From a virus (Duplodnaviria; Caudoviricetes): a stretch of 64,000 nt of DNA. Below, one piece after another: positions 13,301 to 54,361 of this stretch. The notes below the pieces were generated by a model that did not search any database, was not told the DNA's origin, and saw nothing but the letters and a program-made list of their open reading frames with translations. Position numbers and translations under genes: made by a program. The stretch covers positions 64,001 to 128,000 of the IMG/VR virus record IMGVR_UViG_3300026258_000271; one strand, 5' to 3'. The stretch's first letter is position 1; every line of letters starts with the position of its first letter.

Positions 13301-16300
13301 GATAAGAACTAGATCTTCTCCATGCTGTCTCCGCCGGCGCCTGATCACCAAACTTCCAGGTTCGTGCTCGTCCGGGAACATCAAGATTGCTGATCAAACC
13401 TATTGCTAATGGGTCTAACAAGTTTCCTGATGCATCTACAGGAATGTAAGTTCTAATGCTTGGTTTGCCATACCTGCCTGGTTCCGTCGCTATTGCATTC
13501 CATAGTATGTCATTACCCGCTGTGTACGGAGCAACACCGTAAGTGTCGTCCCAAGTGCTTGGTTTTTCAGAGTGTCCCAACATCTCCCATGGTCTGGTGT
13601 GTGGTGAATCCGTGTCATAAAAATATTTGTAGATACCTCTCCAGTAGCCTGGCAGTTTATTTTGGTTGAGCCTGTCTGTGCTGTTTGCATAATTGTATGT
13701 AAACGGTGATCCTTCTGAAAATACTGTGTTGTTGATATATTGCACATTGTTACGTCCTGCCCAGTTGTAAAAATCTGGACCCATTATATCATCTATTTCA
13801 CTGAAACTGTACTCAGTTGAGGTGAATGCACTAGGCATCACTTCCGACACATCCAATAATGTGTTATCATATTCTACTTTACAGTTGTTGTAAATTCTTT
13901 TCTCTAACTCTAAAATCAAATCATCTCGTTCATCGCCGTAGGCTTTTATTATAGAACCGTCGTGTCTTCTGATAGCATTTGTAGTTGTGATGTATGTGTT
14001 ATCGCTGAAAAGTTCTGGTTTGAACTTAGGATACATTCCAAGTTTAGTTGGACTAGATGGCAAATAACTTCCAGTGGTGTCACTGTAATCTTTGATTTTT
14101 AATATATCTCCAACGGCAACAGTTGTTGAAAGTGTGATACTGTCATCTTCAGTGCTGAATGTATATTCTGATCCATGAACCAGTTGCACATCATTTTTGT
14201 AAACGTAAACTGCTCTGTTGCTCAATGTTGTTAAGTTGTGTTGTGAATCTAGGGCAAATTCTTTTTGAGATGTTCCCTGCACTGTGATTGTTCTTGTTGA
14301 AACATTTTCACCCCAACCAATCATATCGTCGTAATAGAAAGGAAAACTGCTGTTCTTGCCTAGGTTAATCGCTGATATTATTTCGTCAACTCTGTCAGCA
14401 GGCACGCCTTCGTACGCTGAACCTGTTGCATGTGTCAAGAAAGAATTGTACCATTTTTCGTACTCTCGGTTAACATAATCAATGGCCGTAATTGCATTTG
14501 CCTCTTGGTCCGTCAAATTGAATATCGCAGGTACCAAGGACGCTTCGTGTTGTACGATGGTACCACCGTTGAGTCTGCTGTCAGGCTTGTCCCTGAGGTT
14601 TGTTACTCCGGGAATTGCACCAGTGACATCTGTATTCTTTTCTAAAATATCCGTTGTGTGTTTCAAAATCTGACCATAAGTGAAAGTGCCAACTGTTGAA
14701 TTCAGTGCATTGATAGATAAATTTTCAGGCACCTCGTAAATTCCTTTGCCGGCAACCTTGTTAGCACTGCTGTAACCAGCAATCCTAATTTGATCATTCA
14801 CTTTCAATTCATCCACAAATCTCACATATTTGTTCGTGGAACCATCTACTAGTGTGTAATCTGTTGTAAGTGATTTTTGAACACCGTTTACACTTACGGA
14901 AATTTCGAGATCGGTAAGTGATGCCGAATTTTCATAGAAGTCTATTGGAAAAAGTCTCTTCTCGGTAGCATCAACAATAGCCGTCCTTATGACACGCTGT
15001 TTAGATTCACTTGTACGTTTTATCCATGCACTTTTATTATTGTGAGATTGCAAACTTGTTGTGTAGTGTAGATGACCTTCTGCTTGATCCTTGGTTTTTG
15101 TCGTACCATCTTGCTGATATGTAAATGTTCCTGCTGTGTGATCCGACTCGAATACAATATCTCCAACATTGTTAATTGTGTTGTATTTTACTTTGATGCC
15201 AAGCACAGTGTCCGTTGTCGCTGTATCTGAAGTCGCGTATGCAAAAATCTTTGCACCTGTGAACGTTGAGTTTGGATAGGTTGTTGCATCATCAAACAGC
15301 ACGTGGTTGTTGTCGTAAAGATTGAACAAAGGCTGTTGGTTTAATTTTGTTTTCTGTTGTGTTGCCACCCATAGTGTACTTGCTTCATCGTAGTAATACG
15401 AATTTCCTTTATTTTCGGTGCCTTGTTTCACAAAAATGTTTTCTTTATCTTGCGCCGTACCATTTACCTCTTCTGTCAGTGTCAATGACAACACTGATGA
15501 ATCACCAGCATCCACAAAGTTTGCAACGTATATTTTATTTCTTACCAATGGATCTGTGTCAGCAGAGAAAACCACACGCATACCGTCCGTGATTGCCACG
15601 CCGTCGATTATGTAACCAAATGTTCCAGAAACGTTACTCATCGCATCTTTCTGTGTTGTGTCAAACAAGTCCACAGGTGTCTTTGCAACTGTTCCTGAAT
15701 TGTATAACGCAAGTCCTGAATCGAATTCTATAATCGGTCTTTTGGCACGAGCAGTTTCGTCTAATGCTGTTGTTGTTCCGTTGATAGCATTGGCTCTTTC
15801 TATCACAGACCTATGGAACCATCTGTTGTATCTAGTCCATGCATTCAAATCCCTAGAATCTCTCTTGATTGTGATGTAGTCCTTGTCCACCGGAACACCA
15901 TCGTCTGCATAACTTTCGGGTGTTGCCAGGTTTGACACATCAGTAATTGTTATTGCATCTCCTACACCTTCAACATAATATTCTTTTCCTTGATAAGCAC
16001 TGGCCACTTTGCTTGAAGTGAATTTGATCTTCATGCCGTTTGACAGTTGTAGGTTACGCAATTTGTAATTTTTCGTTCCTACTATATCATCCTCTACATC
16101 AATATTTGTAGTACTTGCAACAGTGTGAATGTTTATCAGTCCGTACATGTTCTCATGATTTCCACACTGATAATACAACTTGTTTGGTGCATTGTTTGGA
16201 ATAACAAACGTGACTGTTCCTTCACTGGCTCCATTATTTGTAACACCTGATGTGTACAAAGTCGAAGACGAACCATCCGATGCCACTTGATCCTTTCTTG

Positions 16301-17000
16301 GTTCTGTCATTATGTAGAACGGATGTCCTTTTGCGTTCACTTTGAATTTGTATGTGTTGCCCCTGTAAAGTATAAGTTCTGAATTCCTCTCATTGCCTAG
16401 ATGTGGGAAATGCCAGGCTTTGCCAGAACTTCCGTCGTCCGGCAATGCTTTCACATCGTATTCTGCTTCCGCACCTGTGCCGGCAGAGTCTATTTCTATG
16501 CAGTCAGGTCCGTTACTCAACCAATAGTATTCCCTGTAATTGATCAATTTGTCTAAATCTACTGCTGGGTTCCAACTGTAAACATTGCCTTTGTTGAGCC
16601 TGTCGTGGTTGTTTACCTTTCCTCCTAGGTACTTGATCTGATTAAGATAATCATCGTATGTGCCTGTGAACTTTACTTGGTCTTCTGGGTTGACTGAAGT
16701 TGTGTCTTTGTCTGTATAAGTTACAGCAGGTTCTAGTTGATAGGTATATCTATCAGCACTTGTGGCAGTCAGATATCTGTCAGTCACTTTTCTTGTGTAT
16801 GCGTCTTGTCTGCCTACAAATCCGTCCAATCTCTCCAACGAACCTTTTTGCACCAACGGATCCAAAGTGCTTGACAGGAATCTTTGGTTTGAATCAGTTC
16901 TGTAGAATGAGGGTAGATGTTGAACAGTTCTTCTGTATTCGTTGTTGCCCTGTTTTACAACTTCTTCGTTTGTTGTTGAGTTAGTAGGTGTGTCAGCCAT
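4344..17000 (-). CDS. Giant baseplate wedge/structural protein (4218 aa, possibly gp7-like)
   Basis: Uninterrupted 12.6 kb ORF coupled to gp6. Contains a cupredoxin-like segment, FG-GAP-like propeller repeats, a GGSGY..PTVTI repeat, EVKPFHTKLREY and GDGxTxxF repeats. Confidence 0.8.
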   Translation of the reverse strand: MADTPTNSTTNEEVVKQGNNEYRRTVQHLPSFYRTDSNQRFLSSTLDPLVQKGSLERLDGFVGRQDAYTRKVTDRYLTATSADRYTYQLEPAVTYTDKDTTSVNPEDQVKFTGTYDDYLNQIKYLGGKVNNHDRLNKGNVYSWNPAVDLDKLINYREYYWLSNGPDCIEIDSAGTGAEAEYDVKALPDDGSSGKAWHFPHLGNERNSELILYRGNTYKFKVNAKGHPFYIMTEPRKDQVASDGSSSTLYTSGVTNNGASEGTVTFVIPNNAPNKLYYQCGNHENMYGLINIHTVASTTNIDVEDDIVGTKNYKLRNLQLSNGMKIKFTSSKVASAYQGKEYYVEGVGDAITITDVSNLATPESYADDGVPVDKDYITIKRDSRDLNAWTRYNRWFHRSVIERANAINGTTTALDETARAKRPIIEFDSGLALYNSGTVAKTPVDLFDTTQKDAMSNVSGTFGYIIDGVAITDGMRVVFSADTDPLVRNKIYVANFVDAGDSSVLSLTLTEEVNGTAQDKENIFVKQGTENKGNSYYYDEASTLWVATQQKTKLNQQPLFNLYDNNHVLFDDATTYPNSTFTGAKIFAYATSDTATTDTVLGIKVKYNTINNVGDIVFESDHTAGTFTYQQDGTTKTKDQAEGHLHYTTSLQSHNNKSAWIKRTSESKQRVIRTAIVDATEKRLFPIDFYENSASLTDLEISVSVNGVQKSLTTDYTLVDGSTNKYVRFVDELKVNDQIRIAGYSSANKVAGKGIYEVPENLSINALNSTVGTFTYGQILKHTTDILEKNTDVTGAIPGVTNLRDKPDSRLNGGTIVQHEASLVPAIFNLTDQEANAITAIDYVNREYEKWYNSFLTHATGSAYEGVPADRVDEIISAINLGKNSSFPFYYDDMIGWGENVSTRTITVQGTSQKEFALDSQHNLTTLSNRAVYVYKNDVQLVHGSEYTFSTEDDSITLSTTVAVGDILKIKDYSDTTGSYLPSSPTKLGMYPKFKPELFSDNTYITTTNAIRRHDGSIIKAYGDERDDLILELEKRIYNNCKVEYDNTLLDVSEVMPSAFTSTEYSFSEIDDIMGPDFYNWAGRNNVQYINNTVFSEGSPFTYNYANSTDRLNQNKLPGYWRGIYKYFYDTDSPHTRPWEMLGHSEKPSTWDDTYGVAPYTAGNDILWNAIATEPGRYGKPSIRTYIPVDASGNLLDPLAIGLISNLDVPGRARTWKFGDQAPAETAWRRSSSYPFTVVKTLAITKPAKFFSKFFDTSRISTNVSGNEIYSDTGIRTVLNTAKYYLETSTDNNTGITTRYQTAGYQVFVVNHLIGKNLDPKTFYYDKMKKLNVQLAYKLGGFTDKENLKVLTDSVSPGSTSGSKFIPDENYKILFRTSNPVESFEYSGVLIEKNTDTTTSTDGSTVTDVGGYKILGYSTTKPYFRFNYPVKGTNHGKVQAGGSTVVKKYSNFQETVQTIPYGYVFDTIQDVADFLFGYGNYLETQGFKFNKYSNEIKEVLNWGNAVREFLFWTTQTWAPGSAITVSPAADGFELDTSNTVVGKLRNLAGDYSLLDAGGRKIDIREFSTKRIGKTFDLSIKSEDVGLYNVALNTVQKEHILLFDNSTVFSDIIYEAYTGFRQARLKLVGWKTGNWNGDYYAPGFIFDAAQVTRWTTGTDYRIGDSIEYQAKFYVANVNHNSGNEFVSDYWTLKSQKPAPQLIPNFDYKISQFNTFYDLESNNFDESQEQLAQRLTGYQSRDYLENLFVNDVSQYKFYQGYIRQKGTLNAIDKLLKAKYEDSDITLDLYPEWMVRTGEFGNVDSKESIQITLQDSAVNGNPQSIELLDNGSETKQYGRSLAVTKDDLYSKPVEYTASSTFSRLDYTKESVDKDTAQIFKTAGYPQLQQVQHTAFNIEDLLNLDVNAITNNDLIWVANKENKDWDVFRLTNANFKIANLSTSEGGTQLRIAFTDSHGLSAGTPSQEADYFAISNSEATSLNRVFKVQSTPDHKTVEIEYDDNISFIPTLVDGSTADSYGNIYKFISVRMSSMDNVNDRLNYSVFRDKNDSLAVQGDKAYTDADSSGLWRVYEKQDPYTQLRILTPDSATSNQEFGHKIVARNDGRSAVISAPGKGQGELHFLFRSSHSAGTTYSVQSTVTMTDNDDNTSRLGESLSISTDENFVVAGAPYTNTVDSDGSTRQIDSGLVKTFVWDPATFKYGLLGTVNPPTDGSSSNENLNFGWAHKISEPGVLSKRDTATKYLFVSAPGHAGDNGRVYVYTWGIGADGSTYDTWTLDYTLEAPSAGEGHRFGHRLEANDNADILAVSSLAPGQAGKVEIFIRTSQSDDGSTQNSFALAQTLTGVPLDGSTLNTKFGDSIAMSKDGTTLVIGAPGLDLTDSPDRGAVYIYKWNRDGSTNTYTLDQTINEPDEVSEGKFGSALSINQAGTRLIIGAEKSSNSREMKFDSGETTFDLQDTRIVDTNAGSGAAYTATVYNTKFVLDDKLISDEVSSFDDFGKGVCIIDNNVFVGAPFDEGNPNLTNDGTVYGYDCTVENEYAWKNITTETALIDIEKLGQVFDFNNSTKQIRDYYDLYDPVKGRILGVADREINIKSPWDPAVYNTGNNANTKTPWAENHIGEVWWDLSTVKWIWYEQDDQEYKYNNWGKIFPGSSIDIYEWTESTLTPDEWNDLSGTQQGLANEVTGIANTDFTQTQIYNSKIDTFVSYFYYWVKNRSSIPRNTVVQRKNTSAFVSNAIKDPKAVDIKHFAITDTNKFYIYGVNDLINDSIVLNVDVRTNNFDGQGHSVWKLVREGDPDFRPSTQIEQGWWDSLVGKNTAGDAVPDIDLPLNQRYGNRIRPRQSWYLDRYTALKELIDYANTVLKKNQLSGLIKLGNLDSKEPEPTTASGEFDATVDTYADLSYINTADISGTVNYLVKADETANNYWSIYQWDGTSWNRTRIQTYNTSRYWSYTDWYGTDPDVHEMIHDENTPIDKQVTFQYELDTLDMAIGKHVKVTNADTGGWKLFMKTATGWTNVGTENGTIRLSTKLYDYTQDGTGFAGGDNFDDNTFDQEPVEETRKILTALRDDLFINDLAVEYNTLFFTGLRRVLSEQSYVDWMFKTSFITAVNKVRTFSQRKTYTTGTDSWIEDYINEVKPFHTKLREYKLGYNAPEQHDGVITDFDNPPFYDASVSKIRRLNVQTDTDKLTQYPWQLWYDYHKKHAKSITVYHGGSGYVRVPTVTITGDDSVSATATATIDGGKVTGITVTGVGFGYSTTPTITITGGLADGSTPTDVAKAYVNLNNDLVRDFDTTIKFDRISSSSTVVHWAANTTYKYGTLLRYENQLYKVTNEFTSTTDFDDGINSMYKYYGDESGLTAADRILGFYTPTSGMPGNELSQVMSGVDYGGTMVTGLLFNQSQGWDNSAWYDYPWDNYGLSRTVPFLADGTTKSYTFDTAPASGEVYHVYVSENDSTRRKLSDVFTGDGSTTTFVLSESQNANALVEFIPADDDGVLTPTDDRTLDSIVKGGLFTKDGLYGSALGSAPSDINVDGDEFISSTTSYAPEEVVPGQIFDTLDIKVYTTPTSGAPYISDRIYRGDGTTTTFGIGDHPGTIGSITVSVDGVVKKLTTDYTVDVGAKTITFTTAPDPLSVIATKTFAISGRDFAVLDQFSGDGSTTQFTSSSREDFNLDSTLAELYVTIDGVPTTAFTTTTTTPEFGDLSTTKIGNTLVLTFNSAPSSGAFIQVAGFMRGTDTFTGRSHMRMRNEEITYDGSTTHVLTYPPGAIRPFTGLTLVEVNGKMLRAPDTTYYNGDGSTYTYGVTNGLLDDSTVDPAKTITSADQVEVHVNGSIKTLTTDYTVDLVNQNINFVSGKVPTADQMISITTLVDHHYSIDESNRLVLNTSQIASDGYTLNINDKMAVTTFNNAIGMNLRREVLEGRSDGVYKTYFTPSNSTYMYVWLNGQSLVQNHDFTLSGNTITVIGRTMTQADRLDILYFALPTIADAVGYRIFKDMMNRTFYKRISKAHTTELVETLATDDTEIKVANGSALANPQPVVGLDGSTVSTIIPGVVFVDKERIEYFTKSGNTLGQLQRGTLGTGIKDHGSGAKVVDASGTQTIPYVDTVYTNTFISDGSTATFTISQVPSVSQHTGKPDVDIFIGGQRLLYESEDGSTINYSVDGSTPSVTLSSVPAISTQIKILHKRGQVWTTPADGNPADGKGLQGSTTQQAKFIADEPTNSPE

Positions 17001-20000
17001 TAATATCCTGCCCCACTACTGCCAGTTGATGAACTGGAACCTGTTGTAGTAGAGCCTGATACTGCTGATCCTGTTGTGGTGTTCGACGTGGCAGTTGATG
17101 TTGATGTTACAACAGTGCCAGATGCCTCCAATTGGTTGGCTCCTAGTGCTGTTATAATCGACACATCATCAACGGTGGCCCCACTGATGAAAATTTCGTC
17201 TGCCGCCGAATTGATCTGAAACAGAGAACCAAAAACTTGTCCTTGTTCATTAGGCACTATCACTACTGTAAGCAAGTCTGGTGCCAACTGATTGTGTATA
17301 TACGCGGCTAATTCTGTAAAGTAAAATGCATCTCCAAAGTCCCAATTATCCAACGCAAAAAATTCATTGATTGCGGCTATAACCCTTGTCTTGATCACTG
17401 CGTCAGATACTTTAGTTTGTGAGTTCTTCACAACTTTGAAAGTTGCCTGCAGTTGTTCTTCTGCATTTTTGCCAAATAAAATTTTGTATTTTACCGGATG
17501 GTATATTATTTGGTCGGACAACGATTTCAAAGGATTCAAAATTCCTGAATAGTTTATTCTCAACTGATCTGATGTTGATGCAGAAGGTTTTGTTCCGCCG
17601 TCCTGTAACCAAATCCTAAATCTGTTATCATATGTTCGTTCTAGCAAGTATGTGTCAACAATGTTAGACACGCTAGGATCTATTCTTGTTTCTTGTCCTG
17701 CATGATGCTTGTATTGGAAGTCTATGGAACTTCTACCTTTCCTTGCATAATAATCTGTTGTTGTTGCCATAGTGTTTGTTGAAAGTGTGTATTTCTTAAT
17801 AACATCCTCACTGGTATCATAAAAATAAAATAATTGTCCATCAGTGTAAGTGGCAGTGTTTAGGTCTATATCTGTTTCGTTTTGTGTCACAACAAAATTT
17901 GTTGCGGCATACGGTCTGAATCTTTCGATACTGTCATAAGATAGATATTTTTCATAAAAAACAAATTTTGTCGATTCCGCTGTGCTAGGTTCTATGAATA
18001 TGTCGAACAGTTCCGGATTGTCAACAACACCGTCATCATCATCATCGAGGAATCCAACCTTCACTTTTCTGTTATCTTGATATCCATCTGCCTCTTTTAC
18101 AGTGTCAACAACTTGCCACAGCAACGGATATCCTATTGCGTTTCCTGTTGAAACAATGCTATTTGTTTTTAAAATTTTTACTGTGTCTTTGACTGTCTTA
18201 CCAGTTTTATAATCGTAGATTTTTTCATCTAGATCGAAGTGAAACTTGTTCTGTGATTCTGATTCAAAAATGTATTCTAGTGATCTGTAATGCACAGTAT
18301 AGGTGTTTCCGTCATTTGTAAATTTAAACCAATGACTAGCATCTTTATTTGTGCCGGAAGTGTTTCCTTGATTGGTAAGGCTGAATGCTGTGCTAGAACT
18401 TAAATTTGTTGATGTGATAACTTTCCATGACTGAGACTCAATATCGTATCTTAGACCAAATTCTTCAAACGCTTCGATTCTGTCGATAATGTCTGCTTCA
18501 AGAGTTGCCGAAAACGAGGTTGTAAAAGTTGGTATAACAACACTCACAACTGATCCATTTGGAATAATACCATTCAGTGTTATTGGACCTAAACCTGATG
18601 ATAGATTTCCTGTTCCGGAGTTGCTTCCGTCTCCCACTACACCTGATATCTTTGCCCACTGTCTATCTTCTGCGTTTTCTGTGCCGGCCGTAACTAATTT
18701 GTTGTTTAAAAATTCTCTGGTGTCTGGAGATGTAAATTTAACTAATGCTCCTGTTTTTACATATTTCAAATTTGATGTTGCAGAATCACCCACTGCCAAT
18801 GCACCACCTGACGTGAAATATCCAGTGTTTGTATTTGTTGTTGTGGTAGTCGAGTTCCATGTTGCTGTCAATGATGACAGGTCCTGCGTACTATATTTTT
18901 CATAATAGAAATGTCGAGAATATGCAGTTTTTAATTTTGCTTCTATACTTGTATTGAGCGTAGATTGAATATCGCTTCTGTTATTAAAACTGAAAGTGAA
19001 TGAAGGATTGCTTTCTTCTCTATACAATATTCCGTCCTCTGCAAACACATTCACGTTTGAATACGCACCTGTTGGATCTAGTATTTCTTTTGCCCTGCTG
19101 ATTCCTGATGCTGATCTGTTCACTGATCTTGTTTTGACTATCTCTTGCGATGCACTCAAAGGTACCACTTGGTAGTCCTCTGCTGTGATCATTCTGTCCT
19201 GAGAGTAGTATACCTGTCCTGCTTTTTCCCTAATAGAAGCATTAGACTCTGTTGCTGAAGCATTGTATATTGAACCTTTAAGACTCATTGTGATTGTTAG
19301 ACTTTGATTGGCCCCGTTTGCGTCAACATATGGAACATCTATTTGAATGTTCTGCATGTCAGCAGGTTGTAAGGCGTACTTGGCATTGTCACTGACTCTG
19401 TAGTATGCTCTGAAAGATCCTAGAGGTAAGTTTGAAAAGTTTCCGTCTCCAAAAACAAGATCTACTGTGTCATTGTTTTTAGTGACAACATTGTAAATGT
19501 CTCTAACACTTTTTGATAATGAATTGTAGATTGCATTGTTTCCCGTAAGTGAAGGGACCTTTGTCCATTCCTGTTCAATCTGCCCAAATTGGTCTATTCC
19601 ATACAGCCACACATCTGAATCATTGATGTTCTCAACTGAAATAGATTTCACATAATTTGTCACTGCATTGTTTACTGTGAAATCATCATTCCGTAAAGTG
19701 CCCTGTTTGAATAAGAAGAAAAATCCTGTGCTGTTTGAACTGTCACCAGAACCGTCGTTTCTGTAAACATACGTCAGGCCTGTGCCCTCTATTGGTGCAG
19801 TCTCATAGATTGATTCACTGTCACTAATTGCAGACGATACAATCTCAAAATCCCTGGCAATACCACCTACAGTTTTTGAAAAATTAAAAATAGGCAATCC
19901 ATTTTGATTGGATGCAAATGTGTACAATTCTGTGTCAACTCCTCCAATGGTATCTTTGTCTCTGGGTTTGCCAAAAATTTGTCCAGTTTGATTCGCCGCA

Positions 20001-20482
20001 TTCATTATCGCCGTGAACTGTTCTCTGTAATTAGAATTTGCTGAATCGTTCCATATTATAGTTGAGTTTGCAAGATTTGTGCCTGTTGAATCTCTCACAT
20101 CTTGTGTTGTTGATATTGCATCAATCTTCAGAAGTCCAGTTGCGGGTTTGTTTCTTTTGGCGTTGTAATTTATAAGTCTTGCTAATCTTAAAACAGAGTT
20201 TCTTCTCTCTGCTGTCTCTAGGAAATTTTCTCTTGCATTGAGGTCAACTCTGAAACTTAAAGCCTGTGCGATGTAGGCAATAAGATCTATAAGTGCAACA
20301 TACTCAGAACTCTCTACAAAATCATTGAAATCATCTGGATAGTTCTCCTGTAGATATGCTACCATTGTTCTTCTCAATGTTTCAAAATCGTATGATTTGA
20401 AATCTGCCTGTTGGAAAGCCTGGTAGATCTTTCTCCAATCTTCCGCTACAAGTAATCTGTTCTGTCTATCTGTTGTGGCCAT
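17000..20482 (-). CDS. gp6: Baseplate wedge subunit (T4 gp6-like)
   Basis: SYDFETLR..ENFLETAERRNSVLRLA, LVFGDG, QDRMITAEDY; follows gp25. Confidence 0.85.
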   Translation of the reverse strand: MATTDRQNRLLVAEDWRKIYQAFQQADFKSYDFETLRRTMVAYLQENYPDDFNDFVESSEYVALIDLIAYIAQALSFRVDLNARENFLETAERRNSVLRLARLINYNAKRNKPATGLLKIDAISTTQDVRDSTGTNLANSTIIWNDSANSNYREQFTAIMNAANQTGQIFGKPRDKDTIGGVDTELYTFASNQNGLPIFNFSKTVGGIARDFEIVSSAISDSESIYETAPIEGTGLTYVYRNDGSGDSSNSTGFFFLFKQGTLRNDDFTVNNAVTNYVKSISVENINDSDVWLYGIDQFGQIEQEWTKVPSLTGNNAIYNSLSKSVRDIYNVVTKNNDTVDLVFGDGNFSNLPLGSFRAYYRVSDNAKYALQPADMQNIQIDVPYVDANGANQSLTITMSLKGSIYNASATESNASIREKAGQVYYSQDRMITAEDYQVVPLSASQEIVKTRSVNRSASGISRAKEILDPTGAYSNVNVFAEDGILYREESNPSFTFSFNNRSDIQSTLNTSIEAKLKTAYSRHFYYEKYSTQDLSSLTATWNSTTTTTNTNTGYFTSGGALAVGDSATSNLKYVKTGALVKFTSPDTREFLNNKLVTAGTENAEDRQWAKISGVVGDGSNSGTGNLSSGLGPITLNGIIPNGSVVSVVIPTFTTSFSATLEADIIDRIEAFEEFGLRYDIESQSWKVITSTNLSSSTAFSLTNQGNTSGTNKDASHWFKFTNDGNTYTVHYRSLEYIFESESQNKFHFDLDEKIYDYKTGKTVKDTVKILKTNSIVSTGNAIGYPLLWQVVDTVKEADGYQDNRKVKVGFLDDDDDGVVDNPELFDIFIEPSTAESTKFVFYEKYLSYDSIERFRPYAATNFVVTQNETDIDLNTATYTDGQLFYFYDTSEDVIKKYTLSTNTMATTTDYYARKGRSSIDFQYKHHAGQETRIDPSVSNIVDTYLLERTYDNRFRIWLQDGGTKPSASTSDQLRINYSGILNPLKSLSDQIIYHPVKYKILFGKNAEEQLQATFKVVKNSQTKVSDAVIKTRVIAAINEFFALDNWDFGDAFYFTELAAYIHNQLAPDLLTVVIVPNEQGQVFGSLFQINSAADEIFISGATVDDVSIITALGANQLEASGTVVTSTSTATSNTTTGSAVSGSTTTGSSSSTGSSGAGY

Positions 20483-32322: not shown

Positions 32323-32514
32323 ATGTCACAAACACATGAATCGATCATGACAGAGATTCAAACTTACTCTGAAGAGAACAGCAAGTTCACAGAGAAAGGC
32401 GTTAAGGCTTCGGCTACTAGAGCCAGAAAAGCATTAGCAAATCTTTCTAAATTGATCAAAGCAAGAAGAAAAGAAATTCAGGAAGTTAAGAACGCGGCAA
32501 AAACTGCGGCGTAA
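32323..32514 (+). CDS. Small basic histone H1-like (Hc1-type) protein
   Basis: KFTEKGVKASATRARKAL..LIKARRKEI; AGGA RBS; own terminator. Confidence 0.7.
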   Translation: MSQTHESIMTEIQTYSEENSKFTEKGVKASATRARKALANLSKLIKARRKEIQEVKNAAKTAA

Positions 32515-33441: not shown

Positions 33442-33846
33442 TTATTTCAATATGCCTTTACCGTGTACCCTTACACGTATATGCCCATTGTAGTAATCGT
33501 TTGTTTCTAGCACCTTACGTGCAAACTGCTCACGTGCCTCAACGTAAGATAGTTCTGCTTTGGACTTGCAGAAAAAAAGTATTTCTCTCTTGAACTTGTC
33601 CTTGCCTAGTTTATTAACATCCATAGTGAGATCATCACTTGACCCGTAATAGTCTTGCCAATCAGAATTAACCTTGTATCTACGCTTGTTCTTTCTGCCT
33701 TTCAGTGGTGGTCTGGATCTTTTAAATCTAGCAAGTTTCTTACCTACGTACATCCTACCGTTGGTTGTATTTGTAATAAGGTACACAAATCCCACAACGT
33801 TTTCTGGCATATTGGTAATTTCATTTCCTTGATAAGTCCAATGCAT
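33442..33846 (-). CDS. Minimal GIY-YIG family nuclease
   Basis: GFVYLITN..GRMYVGKK, YYGSS, FKREIL, conserved E and YYN. Start reassigned to MHWTY (33846), just after TAAATA. Confidence 0.7.
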   Translation of the reverse strand: MHWTYQGNEITNMPENVVGFVYLITNTTNGRMYVGKKLARFKRSRPPLKGRKNKRRYKVNSDWQDYYGSSDDLTMDVNKLGKDKFKREILFFCKSKAELSYVEAREQFARKVLETNDYYNGHIRVRVHGKGILK

Positions 33847-33900
33847 AGCCATATTTAAAGCCAAAAAGATTGACCTACAAAGAAAACTCATATAAACATA

Positions 33901-34312
33901 TGCGATAGGCACATCTCAATTTCAATCAGGCAAACATAGCATCGCAACCAGTGAGCAAGGAAATGCGGCAGAAATGCGACAGGTGAATCCTTAGATGCAG
34001 ACAGCAAAAAATGATGAGGCTCCTAGAAAAAGATAGACCTCAGATTTACCAAGAACCATTATACAGGGGTTTGGTAGATTCGCGTTGTAATGAATGAGCA
34101 AACGGGTACAGCACAACCGCCCGACGCAAGTAGCGATGTATAGTGACTGTGAACTCACCACAGAGTTTAGTCAGTTCGGCTAGAGATAGCCGAATTGTGA
34201 CTGCTCATCTACCACAGAGAACGCATACTGCGTTCAAGTTTTTTACAACTGCGTAAGTTAAAAAAAGAAACGAGCGTAAGCGAAGTTTCAGATGGCGTAA
34301 GCCGTCTCTGAA
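33901..34312 (+). ncRNA. Putative large structured non-coding RNA (family not recognised)
   Basis: No ORF of 60 aa or more. About 10 helices found by eye, including nested long-range pairs, GNRA loops and G-U wobbles that favour the + strand. Confidence 0.6.
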
Positions 34313-34330
34313 TCAGCAGTAAGTATTAGC

Positions 34331-35104
34331 ATGGAACTACTATTCGATCACACTTTCGGCAAACAGGAACAGCAGGACCTAGTGATATGCAAACCCATGG
34401 CCATAGTGGACCATGACGAGGAGGCGGAGGCATTGGACCGAGGCTGGCTGGCGCTGGACCACCCCATAGACAAGCACAAAGAAGTTTTCTACCAATCACG
34501 TAGCACACGCATAAACATGGACCTGTACCGTCCCAGATACAAGTCACACACCTACAATGGTGAGCAGATAGGCGTAAAGGTTATCGACGCATCTGAGATG
34601 GTTAAACTGTTGTCGCTACCGCACATCTACAAGCAGTACATGAAGCGGAAAAATTTTGGCGCGGACTACGACCCGTTCGCACACTATCACAAGCGTGACC
34701 AGTTCATGGTGTTCTACCTGGGCACCGCTGACAACATTGTGGGATTCACCAAACAGAAGAGATACAGGTTCCAGGAGGACAACTACTCGACCATAGACAC
34801 CTTTGACTCACAGGACCTGGCGGGACTGGAGAGCGTGATACACGCCAACACCATACCCATATCGGACATCACGCTGGACATGGAGATCGAGTGGGCCAGC
34901 AATCACTACGTGAGGTACTTCTACATGGGTTCGGGGTATGAGCAGAGCTCGGAATACAAGGCCAACTACAAGGGATTCGAATGGTGGACCGGCACCGAGT
35001 GGAGCACCAACAAGAAGCAGTATCGTAGATTGTGTCGCAGGGACAGTAAACTCACTGAGTTTTCCGCTCTCGGAAACCTTTCACTGATTCCAGATAAGTC
35101 TTAG
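34331..35104 (+). CDS. ATE1/Bpt-like aminoacyl-tRNA--protein transferase-like protein
   Basis: ALDRGW..YQSRSTRI, IYKQY, and C-terminal EIEWA..YFYMG..SEYKANYKGFEWWTGTEW resembling the ATE/Bpt C-terminal domain. Confidence 0.55.
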   Translation: MELLFDHTFGKQEQQDLVICKPMAIVDHDEEAEALDRGWLALDHPIDKHKEVFYQSRSTRINMDLYRPRYKSHTYNGEQIGVKVIDASEMVKLLSLPHIYKQYMKRKNFGADYDPFAHYHKRDQFMVFYLGTADNIVGFTKQKRYRFQEDNYSTIDTFDSQDLAGLESVIHANTIPISDITLDMEIEWASNHYVRYFYMGSGYEQSSEYKANYKGFEWWTGTEWSTNKKQYRRLCRRDSKLTEFSALGNLSLIPDKS

Positions 35105-35570
35105 ACCAGTTCCGGTAATAGGGACCTGACTCCAGCATTTTAGAAAATCTGTTCAACTTGCTCAAACTTTGCACGAGGAACAGCGTGTACTCGCCGTTGT
35201 TGAGTTTCACGTGTCGCACACTCTCGTCGATCCCAGGATGGTCCTCCAGTATCACCACGTCACGGGGCATCTGTTTTTCGTTGAACCATTCCGCCATGCT
35301 CACAGTCTGTTCCGCGGTGAACGTGTCCGGATCACAAATGATGCAGAGCACGTCCTTGTCCCTGCTGTCATACTGACATATGTGCCTGTACACCTGGCGC
35401 CAGTCTGCGTCACGTGGTATCTCCACGAATGCTACCTTGTCCTCTATGATCGCCTTCTGTGCGAACGGACAGGGTGGCAGGTTGCCGAAGACGGGATTTG
35501 GTTTCGTGACGAAATCCTTAATCCAGTTCTTTATCTTCTGTGTCGGGGTCTGTTTCTTCTGTTGAGTCAT
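35052..35570 (-). CDS. DUF1415-like protein
   Basis: WIKDFV..NLPPCPFA motif and LEDHP. Confidence 0.5.
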   Translation of the reverse strand: MTQQKKQTPTQKIKNWIKDFVTKPNPVFGNLPPCPFAQKAIIEDKVAFVEIPRDADWRQVYRHICQYDSRDKDVLCIICDPDTFTAEQTVSMAEWFNEKQMPRDVVILEDHPGIDESVRHVKLNNGEYTLFLVQSLSKLNRFSKMLESGPYYRNWSKTYLESVKGFRERKTQ

Positions 35571-46468: not shown

Positions 46469-46590
46469 ATAAAAAAAATATTTCACCTTCATACCTGACG
46501 CAGACCAAATAAGGTAGTTTTACTTTTAAGCAGTGCTTCTAAATAATTCTGAGTTTCATTAGAAACTTACAACATCAAGGGAGGTCCAAT

Positions 46591-46824
46591 ATGGATATCA
46601 TGATGAAAGTAAAAGGATGGGCGAAAGCAATCGCTGATGTCGGTGTATCATTCATCGCGTTAGGAATTGTTTTAGAAATTCTTTTCAACGGTCAAGGTAT
46701 TCCGTTCTGGCCAAACGTTTCAGTAATCGGAAACGTCCAGGGCGTACTGCAAGGATTCTCAGATCAAGGTTTGATCGGATTAGTTGCAGTTTGGATTTTA
46801 TATCATATCTACAACAGAAAATAA
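46591..46824 (+). CDS. Small two-helix membrane protein
   Basis: Two hydrophobic stretches, GGAGG RBS, TAAATA at 46540, own terminator. Confidence 0.7.
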   Translation: MDIMMKVKGWAKAIADVGVSFIALGIVLEILFNGQGIPFWPNVSVIGNVQGVLQGFSDQGLIGLVAVWILYHIYNRK

Positions 46825-46852
46825 TATAAAAATCTAGAAATACGTTAACCTC

Positions 46853-46891
46853 GAGAGTGGTGTGAGCCATTTTGTTTACACCACTCTTTTT
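46853..46891 (+). terminator. Intrinsic terminator
   Basis: gagagtggtgt/acaccactctt stem followed by Ts. Confidence 0.75.
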
Positions 46892-46920
46892 CTACACATT
46901 TAATAACTCACAAAATTTGG

Positions 46921-47028
46921 TAAATACTATCAGTTCAAACGTGCTTTCACATACAGTGAAAGACTTATGCGGATAACAACCGCGTAGCCAGGAGAACTGG
47001 CATTGGACTCCTATAAAGGAGAAAACAA
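46921..47028 (+). promoter_or_regulatory. Late promoter plus structured 5' leader
   Basis: TAAATA followed by four tandem hairpins; the last (ctcct/aggag) sequesters the RBS. Confidence 0.55.
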
Positions 47029-47466
47029 ATGGGAAGACCTATCAAAAAAAGTAAAATGGCTGGAAGTGCCTCAGGTGTAGCAGGTAACATTGCAGTTACG
47101 GCTTACAGAGCATCTGGTGGTTCAAAAGTTGACTCTACAACGGCTTATATCATAAGTCAAAGAGGATCTAAATTATTCAAGATTTCTTTGGAAGATTCAA
47201 CTTCTGGCGTTTACTGTTTAAAAGCAGTAGCACCAGGTTCATTATCAGCGTCTCCACCAAACGGATCTGCAGGTGAATTCTGTGTACAGATGATTCTAAA
47301 TGACTCAACTGTTGCATACGTAGAGAAATTCTACAACAACACAGTACACTATGTTGATGCCGCAGGAAACACAGGTGTTACAAAATACACACTTGGAACT
47401 GAGACAACTGACGAAGGACAAGCAGGCGCAGGAATTGGTAACATCGACGTTATCACAGACCAGTAA
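47029..47466 (+). CDS. Probable virion (head decoration/fibre) protein
   Basis: MGRPIKK.., YIISQRGSKLF; strong RBS, late promoter and terminator. Confidence 0.55.
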   Translation: MGRPIKKSKMAGSASGVAGNIAVTAYRASGGSKVDSTTAYIISQRGSKLFKISLEDSTSGVYCLKAVAPGSLSASPPNGSAGEFCVQMILNDSTVAYVEKFYNNTVHYVDAAGNTGVTKYTLGTETTDEGQAGAGIGNIDVITDQ

Positions 47467-52222: not shown

Positions 52223-54361
52223 ATGCCAACAGCACTGCAATTTAGACGGGGAACGACATCACAAAACAACTCATTTACAGGAGTTGTGGGTGAACTTACT
52301 GTCGACACAGATCTAGATACAATCGTAGTACATGATGGCTCAACAGCAGGTGGTTTTCAAATTACCCAAAATAATGCTGTACAAACTTTAACAAATAAAA
52401 CACTTACAAATCCAACAATTAATGGTGGTACATTCAGTGGTACATTCACTGGTACAATATCACCCGGACAGGTTACAACCAATTCAATTATATCTAATGG
52501 TTCGAATGCAGATATCAGCATCCAACCTAGCGGCACAGGTGATATACTATTAAGTGCATTAAGAGTAAATGGAACAACATTAGACAGTTCAGACTCAACG
52601 AAAATCACAATAGCAGAAAATGTTGATGTTACAGGAACTTTAAGCGTAGAAGGAGCATTGAGTTCATCTACAAGTTTAGCATTAGCCTCAGGAGCAACAG
52701 TAACAGGTATTGCCGACGAAGACAACATGTCAAGCAACAGTAACACATTGTTAGCAACACAGCAGTCAATCAAAGCGTATGTAGATGCACAACTAACAGC
52801 AGAAGATCTTGACTTCCAAGCAGACTCAGGTGGTGCATTAGCAATCGATCTAGACAGCGAAACAATGACATTTACTGGTGGCACAGGTATTGACACATCA
52901 GGATCAGGCAACACAATTACATTCGCGATAGACTCTACCGTTGCCACACTCACAGGGTCACAAACACTTACGAACAAAGTGTTAACATCACCAACGATTG
53001 CTACACCTACAATAACCGGCAATGCTACAATTGGAGAGATTACAACAAATAAAATTACATCAAATGGATCAAACGCAGAATTATCACTACAAGCAAGTGG
53101 TACAGGAGATGTCTTAATCAGTGCATTAAGAGTAAATGGAACAACATTAGATTCAGCGGATTCAACAAAGATTACAATAGCAGAGGCACTAGATGTAACA
53201 GGTGCTTTGGTTTACAATGGCTTTACAATGCCGACTACAGACGGTTCAGATGGACAAGCAATCGTTACAGACGGTTCTAAAACTTTAAGTTTTGCAACAG
53301 TAAGCACAGAATCTAACGCTTCAGATGACACAACTGCAACTGCTGTTACACAATTACAAATCAGCAACAGTGCAAAAACTATTGACTCATTTGTATCTAG
53401 TTTCCAAGACAGTGCATTATACTATTGTGTATCAAAAGATTACAATACAGATACAGTAAACATTCAGAAAGTTTCATTATGCCACAACGACAGCGATGCA
53501 TTTGTATCGGCAGTTGGTGCGAAATCAGGTACCAACACAGCAGGCACAGACATGACGGCATTCACAGCGGCACTAACAAATGGTATCGTACAATTGAAAG
53601 CACAGACTCCAAATGCGGCGGGAGGTGCAATATCTTTCCTACAGTTTGGGTTAGGAGATAACACATCTGCAGGCACATCAGGCAACGTGATTATCACACA
53701 GAATACAGATGTTGATTCAGCATCAGAATCACTTGTTAGTTTTGCTCATTCAACTTTTAGAGGTGCAAAATTGTTTATATCAATTAACAACAATGCTAAA
53801 ACTGAAGTTGGAAACATGGAAGCACTTGTTGTGCATGATGGCAGTGATGCATATATTTTACCATACAATGGAATGCAATCAGGAGACAATCCACTGCTAA
53901 CATTAACAGCGGCAATTGACGGAAGTAACGTTGTTGTCTCAGCGGCAGGTGGTGAACCAAACTTGAGGGTTACTGTTTCTGCAATTATGTTGAAAGACAC
54001 AATGACAGCAACAGGTACACAATTTGATAACATCCTTGCTATTGCTCCGGTGACAGTTTCTTCAACTGCAACTGAAATAGACGCAATGCCGGCCGATGCT
54101 AACAACGGAGCAGTGTATTACTGTGTTAGTAAAAATACTGCTGAAGGTTCTTATGCCGTGCATGAAGTTTTCCTAGCACTTGGGCCAGGAGATGCAACTG
54201 TGGCAAGTGGACCGTATGTTAGTACAAAAGGTACACACCAACTAGATTTTACTGCTGAATACAAAAGCACAGGAAAAAACACAGGTGCTTTGAAGGCATC
54301 TTCTACTTCTGGTGCATCAACTACTGTAAGTTCGTATAGAATAAACGCATTAGCGAAATAG
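52223..54361 (+). CDS. Virion fibre protein with Mtd_N-like N-terminus
   Basis: LQFRRGT..FTGVVGELTVDTD..VVHDGSTAGG; internal repeats; three related C-terminal beta domains. Confidence 0.75.
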   Translation: MPTALQFRRGTTSQNNSFTGVVGELTVDTDLDTIVVHDGSTAGGFQITQNNAVQTLTNKTLTNPTINGGTFSGTFTGTISPGQVTTNSIISNGSNADISIQPSGTGDILLSALRVNGTTLDSSDSTKITIAENVDVTGTLSVEGALSSSTSLALASGATVTGIADEDNMSSNSNTLLATQQSIKAYVDAQLTAEDLDFQADSGGALAIDLDSETMTFTGGTGIDTSGSGNTITFAIDSTVATLTGSQTLTNKVLTSPTIATPTITGNATIGEITTNKITSNGSNAELSLQASGTGDVLISALRVNGTTLDSADSTKITIAEALDVTGALVYNGFTMPTTDGSDGQAIVTDGSKTLSFATVSTESNASDDTTATAVTQLQISNSAKTIDSFVSSFQDSALYYCVSKDYNTDTVNIQKVSLCHNDSDAFVSAVGAKSGTNTAGTDMTAFTAALTNGIVQLKAQTPNAAGGAISFLQFGLGDNTSAGTSGNVIITQNTDVDSASESLVSFAHSTFRGAKLFISINNNAKTEVGNMEALVVHDGSDAYILPYNGMQSGDNPLLTLTAAIDGSNVVVSAAGGEPNLRVTVSAIMLKDTMTATGTQFDNILAIAPVTVSSTATEIDAMPADANNGAVYYCVSKNTAEGSYAVHEVFLALGPGDATVASGPYVSTKGTHQLDFTAEYKSTGKNTGALKASSTSGASTTVSSYRINALAK
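52553..53151 (+). repeat. 32 bp exact direct repeat inside a fibre gene
   Basis: agtgcattaagagtaaatggaacaacattaga at 52553-52584 and 53120-53151. Confidence 0.9.

Follow-up and report, generated by a model that had tools for sequence, protein, structure and literature searches.

Several kinds of structured nucleic acid that have been described in phages and bacteria invite comparison with the locus treated here. The Polynucleobacter-1 motif was proposed as a candidate RNA of 141 nucleotides (nt) that occurs in Burkholderiales and in metagenomes from fresh water and estuaries, and the survey that introduced it, which is the only paper to name it in the literature searched, rated it as probably an RNA, probably cis-regulatory and possibly a switch (Weinberg et al. 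2010, PMC2864571). Three RNAs of the large and ornate kind represented by ROOL, GOLLD and OLE have been reported as homo-oligomers (PMC12286853). The single-domain Ssn nucleases, which are of the GIY-YIG type, are reported to recognise structured single strands beside their own genes, the partner being a short DNA hairpin repeat that exists in many copies and is cut as single-stranded DNA (Chenal et al. 2025, PMC11893778). The subject of this account is an element of about 410 nt in a tailed virus (Caudoviricetes) known from the IMG/VR record IMGVR_UViG_3300026258_000271. By "the window" we mean the whole stretch of DNA that was analysed, i.e., 64,000 nt at positions 64,001 to 128,000 of that record, and all coordinates refer to its first letter. 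The element is flanked by a SegE-like GIY-YIG gene and by an open reading frame (ORF) of 257 amino acids (aa). A first-pass annotation, made by a model from the letters of the window, had pointed to a large and unrecognised phage RNA at this site; its observation is partly confirmed and its interpretation is supported by the analysis reported here, and the architecture that it drew needed correcting.

The source of this RNA is an uncultured marine T4-like jumbo phage. The parent record (138,715 bp; CheckV completeness 39%) contains genes for a T4-type portal protein (gp20), prohead protease, major capsid protein (gp23) and gp15, as well as gp46/gp47-like and baseplate-hub genes. Homologues of its capsid protein from cultured jumbo phages, e.g., Phosso and PA5oct, share no more than 73% identity with it, and 14 DNA runs labelled as marine or seawater metagenomes, of which two may be the source, contain at least 0.47 of the sampled words.

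The element is a conserved, covarying and structured RNA of the plus strand, and it is very probably a real stand-alone RNA. When the 257-aa protein was used as bait, 43 viral loci were recovered, of which 42 contain the element at 76-96% nucleotide identity and the 43rd begins within the gene; in two of these loci the RNA is 96% and 88% identical to that of the window (L035 and L036, respectively) as compared to 71% and 66% for the adjoining protein. A search with a 19-mer from the core of the element returned at least 119 further stretches from the viral collection, and a pattern that excludes the usual base at loop position 34113 returned 72 more loci with variant loops. The stretch between the GIY-YIG gene and the 257-aa ORF contains no conserved ORF, as the first-pass annotation had stated. 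The predicted folding energy of the plus strand (-123.4 kcal/mol) corresponds to a z-score of -3.69 and was equalled by none of 100 shuffled controls, and the corresponding values for the minus strand are -1.86 and 3 of 100. Covariation was scored on an alignment of 83 distinct window-type sequences (A3), for a structure of 96 pairs and 7791 cells. Standard pairs fill 94.9% of these cells as compared to 86.0% in shuffled alignments, and 51 of the 96 pairs have changed on both sides; neither value was reached by any of 500 shuffles. The covariation score is 0.310 and drops to 0.073 or less (with 32-38% of cells paired) when partners are slid by 1-3 columns. Since G-U cells (758) far exceed A-C cells (145), the fold belongs to the plus strand, which is the strand that had been favoured from the sequence alone.

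Two covarying pseudoknots, both first found by a mutual-information scan, organise the fold. They take the place of two long-range helices in the first-pass annotation that did not survive comparison with relatives: cgcgttgtaa/ttacaactgcg forms only 47-78% standard pairs, and atgagca/tgctcat forms 52-93% without covariation, positions 34098-99 of the latter pairing instead with 34133-34 (100% and 97% standard; CG in 70 sequences, UA in 15 and GU in 5). The first pseudoknot, PK1, is a kissing contact between the loop of hairpin Pd and a segment 3' of the core. It is 98.8% paired on A3 (helix 8) with four both-sided pair changes, and at least 7 contiguous complementary bases are found in 150 of 154 unique family members, which represent 66 distinct sequence pairs such as UAUUAUACA/UGUAUAGUG, GUUCAACUAGA/UUUAGUUGAAU and AUUGGAUUG/UAAUCCAAU. 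The second, PK2, joins a 5' strand to the loop of the core hairpin and, among 114 anchored unique sequences, takes the form of 16 different combinations of strand and loop; its first four pairs are standard in all of these but one, a chance locus, and the compensating variants include CAAAC/GUUUG, CUGAC/GUCAG, GCAAC/GUUGC, GUAAC with GUUAU or GUUAC, and GUGAC with GUCAU or GUCAC.

The first-pass annotation had also noticed that a gtgactg...accacagag motif occurs twice, and this duplication holds: the two copies flank hairpin H, and their variable bases change identically in both. Positions 34157/34211 are AA in 67 and GG in 19 sequences (n=89), 34158/34212 are CC in 65 and GG in 14, and 34159/34213 are CC in 74 and UU in 6. 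Other lineages have shared twin words of their own (ACAUGAUG, AACGUGAUG, GUGUCAAGU and AGGAAAUA, and AGCGAAA in bacteria). Short CUG/CAG stems within the twin modules (helix 13) were considered and rejected, there being no covariation for them on A3.

The window RNA itself is matched by no model of Rfam 15. At gathering scores the only match in the whole window lies elsewhere (see below), and a permissive search of 33700-34500 (E <= 10) gave five matches to models of small nucleolar, small and long non-coding RNAs at 14-17 bits, far below threshold, and none to Polynucleobacter-1 (RF01718; 141 positions, gathering threshold 37 bits). The description of the RNA as unrecognised is correct to this extent; it fails in that relatives detected with a model of the core carry RF01718 as their 5' domain. 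The connection came from a 285-kb record (G001) with the same synteny as the window (gp46-like gene, Hc1-like gene, GIY-YIG gene, RNA, convergent baseplate genes), where the RNA occupies a 660-nt gap and a permissive Rfam search placed Polynucleobacter-1 just 5' of the core (88.3 bits, E 2e-19). The relatives L258, L200, L226, L193, L181 and L190 score 48-96 bits against RF01718, and the motif is present in five loci of what we call subfamily 2. Ten window-type and five other divergent loci gave no RF01718 match at E <= 0.1.

Only window-type sequences, 82 in all, went into covariance model R1, which covers the core domain (34080-34229; 150 positions). It matches RF01718 carriers from position 1 to position 150 (L190 at 41.8 bits, L200 at 30.7, L258 at 27.6 with E 1e-5, L193 at 27.6 and L181 at 25.6), and along its entire length it also finds the divergent members L061 (34.8 bits) and L198 (29.8 bits). 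Across subfamilies, an alignment of 42 sequences fitted to the model is 95.9% paired as compared to 73.5% in shuffles (0 of 500 reach it), with both-sided changes in 15 of 20 pairs, and PK1 and PK2 are kept by compensating changes. Among 151 Burkholderiales genomes RF01718 had three matches above the cut-off and one weak match, and the rest of the RNA was found 3' of each. The bacterial core reads GGAGACAGC-GAAAC-CGCCC in the three stronger cases and is more diverged in the weak one; as judged by eye, PK2 is formed by GCGUUUC with GAAAC and PK1 by CCACUUAU with AUAAGUGG, and these loci also have the twin AGCGAAA motif, hairpin H and the two 3' hairpins. R1 scores on bacterial loci are low (L262 17.4 bits, E 0.009; L266 12.6 bits, E 0.2; L264 and L265 not listed at E <= 1). 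The core 19-mer occurs in 14 stretches of prokaryote genomes, for which about 17 would be expected by chance in bacterial and archaeal genomes together; four are true homologues, on short contigs of metagenome-assembled genomes, and ten were rejected as chance, having no further similarity, no Rfam family and only a local R1 match (model positions 24-44, in one case 24-52). In cultured phages, blastn searches with the element and with a subfamily-2 RNA found nothing, and a search with the core found only chance matches inside genes, in a collection that may lack records close to the window.

Because R1 matches, from end to end of the model, RNAs whose 5' domain is RF01718, the window RNA is a divergent branch of a larger family with members in several lineages of jumbo phages and in Burkholderiales with small genomes, and Rfam covers only the 5' third of this larger RNA. 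The family is apparently undescribed. The open-access literature searched, some supplements lying outside it, gave no account of the full RNA, its pseudoknots or the window-type phage branch; candidate RNAs in Fremin et al. 2023 are 30-151 nt in length, and the core 19-mer is absent from the six supplementary files of that paper that were searched (PMC10690425).

Taken as a whole, the element is best explained, with moderate confidence, as a free-standing gene for a compact RNA of ~410 nt; that this RNA has a docking role in trans, as a scaffold presenting two identical loops, is a tentative suggestion of rather low probability. The RNA would be transcribed by the host RNA polymerase from a sigma-70-like promoter of its own, and it would act in trans and not on the adjoining gene. 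The pseudoknotted core may fix the positions of the two identical motif copies, which would offer equivalent docking sites to a partner that is itself dimeric or repeated, be it a protein or a nucleic-acid sequence present twice. Because no neighbouring gene is common to the phage and bacterial loci, the gene for this partner would in all likelihood lie elsewhere, possibly in the host genome. TTGAC and an A/T-rich -10 region are conserved in both of the alternative 5' flanks found among relatives, the second flank type having TTGACT-N17-TATATA with a TGT extension. The candidate promoter that the first-pass annotation had assigned to the next gene (TAAGTA, 34320-25) lies 5 nt ahead of the ATG and, compared by eye, agrees with TATAAT in only 2-3 of 6 positions.

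A number of observations weigh against a free-standing docking RNA. In the window, the promoter-like box has a poor -10 region and a spacer of 15 or 17 nt, and it was missed by a simple sigma-70 scan. Four RNA libraries, drawn from four studies, have contigs that cover 33918-34210, which speaks for expression, but such contigs reveal neither strand, ends nor abundance, and RNA libraries can contain DNA; no RNA-library contig matched 34254-34314, and contig ends at 34132-34210 vary by run and say nothing firm about the 3' end. A hairpin at 34219-44, which a terminator scan predicts to be a Rho-independent terminator (7 pairs, where a G+C-rich stem of 5 or more is required, 4 of them G-C, a 3-nt loop and the tail AAGTTTTTTA), lies inside the proposed RNA, so that the 3' domain might be confined to a read-through form. 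Neither a complement nor extra copies of the twin motif occur consistently in the RNA or its flanks, and the lock-step change of the two copies could stem from gene conversion between repeats or could reflect one strand with two alternative partners. Owing to the A/U-rich composition of the region, no more than 30 of 154 sequences have, taken singly, a PK1 complementarity that tops all of the 50 shuffles, and support for this contact comes from covariation. Lastly, there is no protein gene that the phage and bacterial loci share, the neighbour being a GIY-YIG gene in phages and a DUF6641 gene in bacteria.

The relation of the RNA to the genes on either side bears on two other readings. Downstream genes were counted at 68 distinct loci with at least 700 nt of downstream sequence, and the 257-aa gene follows immediately in 43 of them, as might be expected if the RNA were a cis-acting leader or attenuator in which sensing of a ligand or a tRNA decides between a stop at 34219-44 and read-through to the 3' domain and the ATE-like gene. 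The terminator-like hairpin within the element would suit such a role, as would the aminoacyl-tRNA-dependent transferase fold suggested by the model of the 257-aa product, a twin motif whose copies are alternative partners of one strand, and the published rating of Polynucleobacter-1 as probably cis-regulatory (PMC2864571). A same-strand gene directly downstream in nearly all members, which is what leaders and T-boxes have, is however not the rule in this family. At 10 of the 68 loci a convergent minus-strand homologue of a coiled-coil or 73-aa gene ends within 450 nt of the core and there is no gene to regulate; at five more a convergent gene lies at 452-846 nt, at one a convergent coiled-coil homologue lies some 1.35 kb off, at two other genes are inserted ahead of the 257-aa gene, and at seven no homologue of the window's downstream genes is found. 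At three loci a gene distantly related to the 257-aa one (27-28% identity) is on the opposite, upstream side of the RNA and divergent from it, and the genes downstream at three bacterial loci seem, by eye, to be unrelated. The 257-aa family was not found in the five subfamily-2 records, an empty answer that in itself shows nothing, and no T-box or riboswitch model matches the element. Because the RNA is followed directly by a convergent gene at 10 or more of the 68 distinct loci, it is a free-standing gene and not a leader, as the first-pass annotation had surmised, and we consider a cis-regulatory function quite unlikely. On the other side, the GIY-YIG gene adjoins the RNA at 63 of 82 distinct loci, divergently at 61 of them and in the same orientation at 2, is further off within the fetched flank at 11 and was unseen at 8; a re-check of five of these eight located it 2.4-3 kb away at three, for a total of at least 14 non-adjacent loci, all within ~3 kb. 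It is adjacent, on the same strand, in four of the five subfamily-2 records (54-60% protein identity). Such proximity, and a protein that consists of the nuclease domain alone, like the Ssn nucleases that act on structures beside their own genes (PMC11893778), would fit a ribonucleoprotein in which the RNA guides or regulates the nuclease, or an RNA gene that is the homing site retaining the SegE-like gene. The adjacency may instead be inherited gene order, because synteny extends over the whole block of gp46, Hc1-like, GIY-YIG, RNA and baseplate-hub genes in both phage subfamilies. In 538 cultured-phage records there are relatives of the nuclease at less than 60% identity, and in the record checked, that of phage Melnitz (58% identity), the RNA core was not found; at the bacterial loci no GIY-YIG domain was seen among the neighbouring ORFs scanned, the divergent gene there being DUF6641. 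A partnership of RNA and nuclease, or a homing role of the RNA gene, also has only a slight probability.

The remaining alternatives concern what the RNA itself may do. It is a large and ornate molecule with a number of GNRA loops and with ties to phages and mobile elements, and covariation is blind to the difference between contacts within and between molecules; PK1, and perhaps the twin loops, might accordingly act between molecules and build an RNA-only multimeric particle, as in the homo-oligomers mentioned above (PMC12286853). We regard this as unlikely in view of the distance of only ~75 nt from the PK1 loop to its segment, which fits an intramolecular contact, and of the lack of Rfam similarity to ROOL, GOLLD or OLE. 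A somewhat less probable notion is that of a new class of programmable RNA, in which the identical and lineage-specific twin loops, held by the two pseudoknots, would read a nucleic-acid sequence present in two copies, or two tRNAs, and in which the RNA would act together with the GIY-YIG nuclease or the predicted tRNA-dependent transferase as an RNA-directed system in conflicts between phages, mobile elements and hosts. That the pseudoknotted core is the active site of a self-processing or other ribozyme is very improbable: the invariant 11-nt loop that a pseudoknot locks in place would be in keeping with catalysis, as would the conservation of a wobble pair and the number of tertiary contacts, but no known ribozyme model matches and there is no sign of a cleavage site. 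The first-pass annotation had itself offered an origin of replication with ssDNA hairpins as an alternative. Two convergent gene modules do meet at this region, which also adjoins a nuclease gene, and the Ssn systems provide a precedent for structured ssDNA sites (PMC11893778); a strand-specific structure with many G-U pairs, GNRA loops and two pseudoknots, the promoter-like and terminator-like signals, the RNA-library contigs, and the presence of a single copy with no dispersed repeat make an ssDNA element, whether an origin, a packaging site or a nuclease site, extremely improbable. The free-standing RNA gene, with docking in trans as its tentative role, is the reading that we prefer.

The features of the RNA and its two flanking genes are collected in Table 1.

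Table 1. Positions of the structured RNA, its component parts and the adjoining genes, in window coordinates
Feature	Position	Strand	Description
GIY-YIG gene	33442..33852	-	136 aa, single-domain, SegE-like; Pfam SegE_GIY-YIG PF19835, E 5e-36
Promoter-like region	33870..33898	+	TTGACC (33870-75), with a spacer of 15 nt to TATAAA or of 17 nt to TAAACA
Structured RNA gene	33900..34310	+	~410 nt; inferred ends
Variable 5' leader	33907..33935	+	two AGGCA(A/C)AC boxes, 33907-14 and 33928-35
5' domain	33939..33998	+	helix 33939-43/33994-98 around 33957-61/33988-92 and 33964-66/33983-85
Innermost 5'-domain hairpin	33968-70/33975-77	+	GAAA loop
Hairpin Pc	34015..34042	+	34015-19/34038-42, inner 34023-25/34034-36
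Hairpin Pd	34043..34080	+	11 + 2 bp; 8-nt loop 34058-65 is the 5' strand of PK1
PK1 kissing contact	34058-64 x 34138-44	+	Pd loop with 3' strand 34138..34144
PK2	34084..34088 (GUUGU) x 34113-17 (ACAAC)	+	5' strand with core-hairpin loop
Core	34098..34134	+	closing pairs 34098-99/34133-34; hairpin 34103-07/34119-23; mini-hairpin 34124-25/34130-31 with tetraloop
Twin module 1	34143..34165	+	GUGACUG-N7-ACCACAGAG
Hairpin H	34172..34197	+	11 bp, GAGA loop
Twin module 2	34197..34219	+	GUGACUG-N7-ACCACAGAG
Terminator-like hairpin	34219..34244	+	GAACGCA-UAC-UGCGUUC, then U6 (34239-44)
3' domain	34267..34307	+	two neighbouring GUAA-loop hairpins, 34267-71/34285-89 and 34290-96/34301-07
257-aa gene	34331..35104	+	predicted ATE/FemX/MprF-like fold; accessory insertion, not a constant partner

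Most of the local helices in the first-pass annotation are supported by covariation on A3, namely aagga/tcctt enclosing gca-GAAA-tgc, tgagg/cctca, atttaccaag/tttggtagat, cggg/cccg, ac-GCAA-gt, cagttcggcta-GAGA-tagccgaattg and gatggc-GTAA-gccgtc. One, tgcgat/atcgca, was displaced: it forms 46-84% standard pairs without covariation and conflicts with the covarying outer helix of the 5' domain. In the variable leader, the AGGCA(A/C)AC box is retained in two or three copies in both flank types. Helices 1-3 of the 5' domain are 96.1%, 93.0% and 81.3% paired on A3, with three both-sided pair changes each. One pair of this domain (33965/33984; A3 columns 76/96) is G-U in some relatives and A-C in others, an exchange that would fit conserved wobble geometry. 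In hairpin Pc (helices 4-6) the helices reach 98.3% and 100% pairing, and pair 129/156 is GC in 40 sequences and AU in 39. Hairpin Pd (helix 7) is 97.8% paired with both-sided changes in 11 of 13 pairs. The core helices (10-12) are 100% paired on A3 and 96.5-100% across subfamilies; the core hairpin has a near-invariant loop of 11 nt, ACAGCACAACC, and beside the closing pairs A97/G135 and G96/A136 look like tandem G-A pairs. Hairpin H (helix 14) is 99.1% paired on A3 and has changed on both sides at 10 of 11 pairs across subfamilies.

The variable linker begins at the terminator-like hairpin and extends to 34266. The hairpin itself (gaacgca/tgcgttc in the first-pass annotation) is present in most relatives, but the stretch aligns poorly and covaries little, and four of its seven pairs depart from standard pairing only through unpaired cells. 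In some subfamily-2 RNAs (L217 and L228) the linker 3' of twin module 2 is enlarged by tandem 10-nt units, AUCAAAUGUG. In the 3' domain helices 18 and 20 are 96.1% and 96.4% paired, with four and three both-sided pair changes, and the pair 34293/34304 is U-G in 35 sequences, which marks the plus strand; the small gc-GTAA-gc helix that had been proposed exists in the sequence but shows zero covariation. Both 3' hairpins are retained at loci without a downstream plus-strand gene. A run of U after the last hairpin was considered as a sign of downstream-gene status and discarded, since it does not separate loci with such a gene from those without (TTT after the last stem at ~7 of 19 as compared to ~10 of 42 loci, counted by eye).

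As to the neighbouring genes, the identification of a GIY-YIG gene upstream was upheld by its Pfam match. Its conserved neighbour in both phage subfamilies is a gene for an Hc1-like, histone H1-like protein of 63-71 aa (PF07432), which is found at 32323-32514 (plus) in the window and at 4687-4902 (minus) in L258 (E 5e-12 and 2e-13, respectively). The label "ATE-like" for the gene downstream has some backing from a structure model of moderate confidence (pLDDT 65.7, pTM 0.65), for which Foldseek returned human ATE1 (E 2.8e-5, TMq 0.46), L-PGS (5e-5), MprF and FemX, and from Atlas clusters, in which 16-100% of members have ATE_C; the protein has no match in Pfam and no sequence match in the Protein Data Bank, and tblastn found none in cultured phages, so the label stands as a weak fold assignment. 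The gene is convergent with a weakly DUF6875-like gene (35052-35570, minus), and a distant version of this pair (27-35% identity) is flipped to the other side of the RNA at three loci. At one locus (L069) there is a sub-threshold preQ1-II match downstream of the RNA (2720-2824, minus; 34.3 bits where gathering requires 47, E 0.027), which is probably due to chance. All three bacterial loci inspected have a divergent DUF6641 gene, which was not found in five phage records and has no similarity to the GIY-YIG protein. One of these homologues (L264, G060:C4:66000-79000) is in an island of a 1.9-Mb Burkholderiales genome, with a tyrosine integrase (4730-5368), the DUF6641 gene (6873-7340), a 1331-aa fusion of SNF2 helicase and Mrr nuclease, and an EH_Signature protein as neighbours; the last two resemble ZorD and ZorC of Zorya. 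Another bacterial locus is beside restriction-like genes.

Elsewhere in the window there is a second and larger gene-free gap (46469-47028, 560 nt), so that the element is not in the only such gap, as had been claimed. This gap contains a freshwater-2 RNA (RF02980; 81.6 bits, E 6e-11) at 46945-47031 on the plus strand, immediately 5' of an ORF at 47029-47466, and the 3' end of the freshwater-2 consensus, AAAGGAGAAAACAAAUG, amounts to a ribosome-binding site and start codon. The structural region has a single open frame of 4218 aa (4344-17000, minus), followed by one of 1160 aa (17000-20482), and a 712-aa protein (52223-54361, plus) has an N-terminal Mtd_N domain (major tropism determinant N-terminus, E 8e-11). 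ARAGORN detected neither tRNA nor transfer-messenger RNA genes in the window, and tRNA genes were likewise not found in the whole 138.7-kb record.

Large RNAs with complex tertiary folds are rare, and new classes have so far brought either new biochemistry (ribozymes, riboswitches and guide RNAs) or new architecture (RNA-only cages). The present family is abundant, as the 119 or more and 72 matching stretches in the viral collection attest, and is conserved over jumbo-phage lineages and bacterial genomic islands together with its two pseudoknots and its lock-step loop pair. Like ROOL, GOLLD, OLE and the HEARO (omega) RNA, the window RNA is several hundred nt long, has many helices, GNRA loops and pseudoknots, and is at home in phages and genomic islands; it differs in that it resembles their Rfam models neither in sequence nor in structure, nor was there a match to raiA, and Pfam scans of neighbouring ORFs revealed no gene of the IscB or TnpB type. 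It is also smaller than GOLLD and ROOL. With the Ssn systems it shares the arrangement of a small, GIY-YIG-only nuclease beside a structured nucleic-acid element, but where Ssn partners are dispersed or flanking hairpin repeats in many copies, the window element is a pseudoknotted, plus-strand-specific structure of 410 nt with transcription signals, and the 138,715-bp record contains it once (three further matches span 14-21 nt, E 0.3-0.6). T-box leaders resemble it as long structured RNAs with a terminator-like hairpin upstream of a gene whose product, here by its modelled fold, may use aminoacyl-tRNA, and the variable triplets of the twin loops could, as pure speculation, be called codon-like; T-box models do not match, however, the downstream gene is often missing, and the record lacks tRNA genes. 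The closest described relative is Polynucleobacter-1. Its carriers have the core, PK1, PK2, twin motif, hairpin H and two 3' hairpins of the window RNA 80-110 nt further 3', whereas the 5' domain of the window RNA is shorter and dissimilar, and an orphan Rfam motif of 16 years' standing is thereby seen to be just the 5' third of a far larger RNA. Strains of the genus Polynucleobacter exist in culture and would offer a tractable system for an RNA that is otherwise met with only in uncultured phages.

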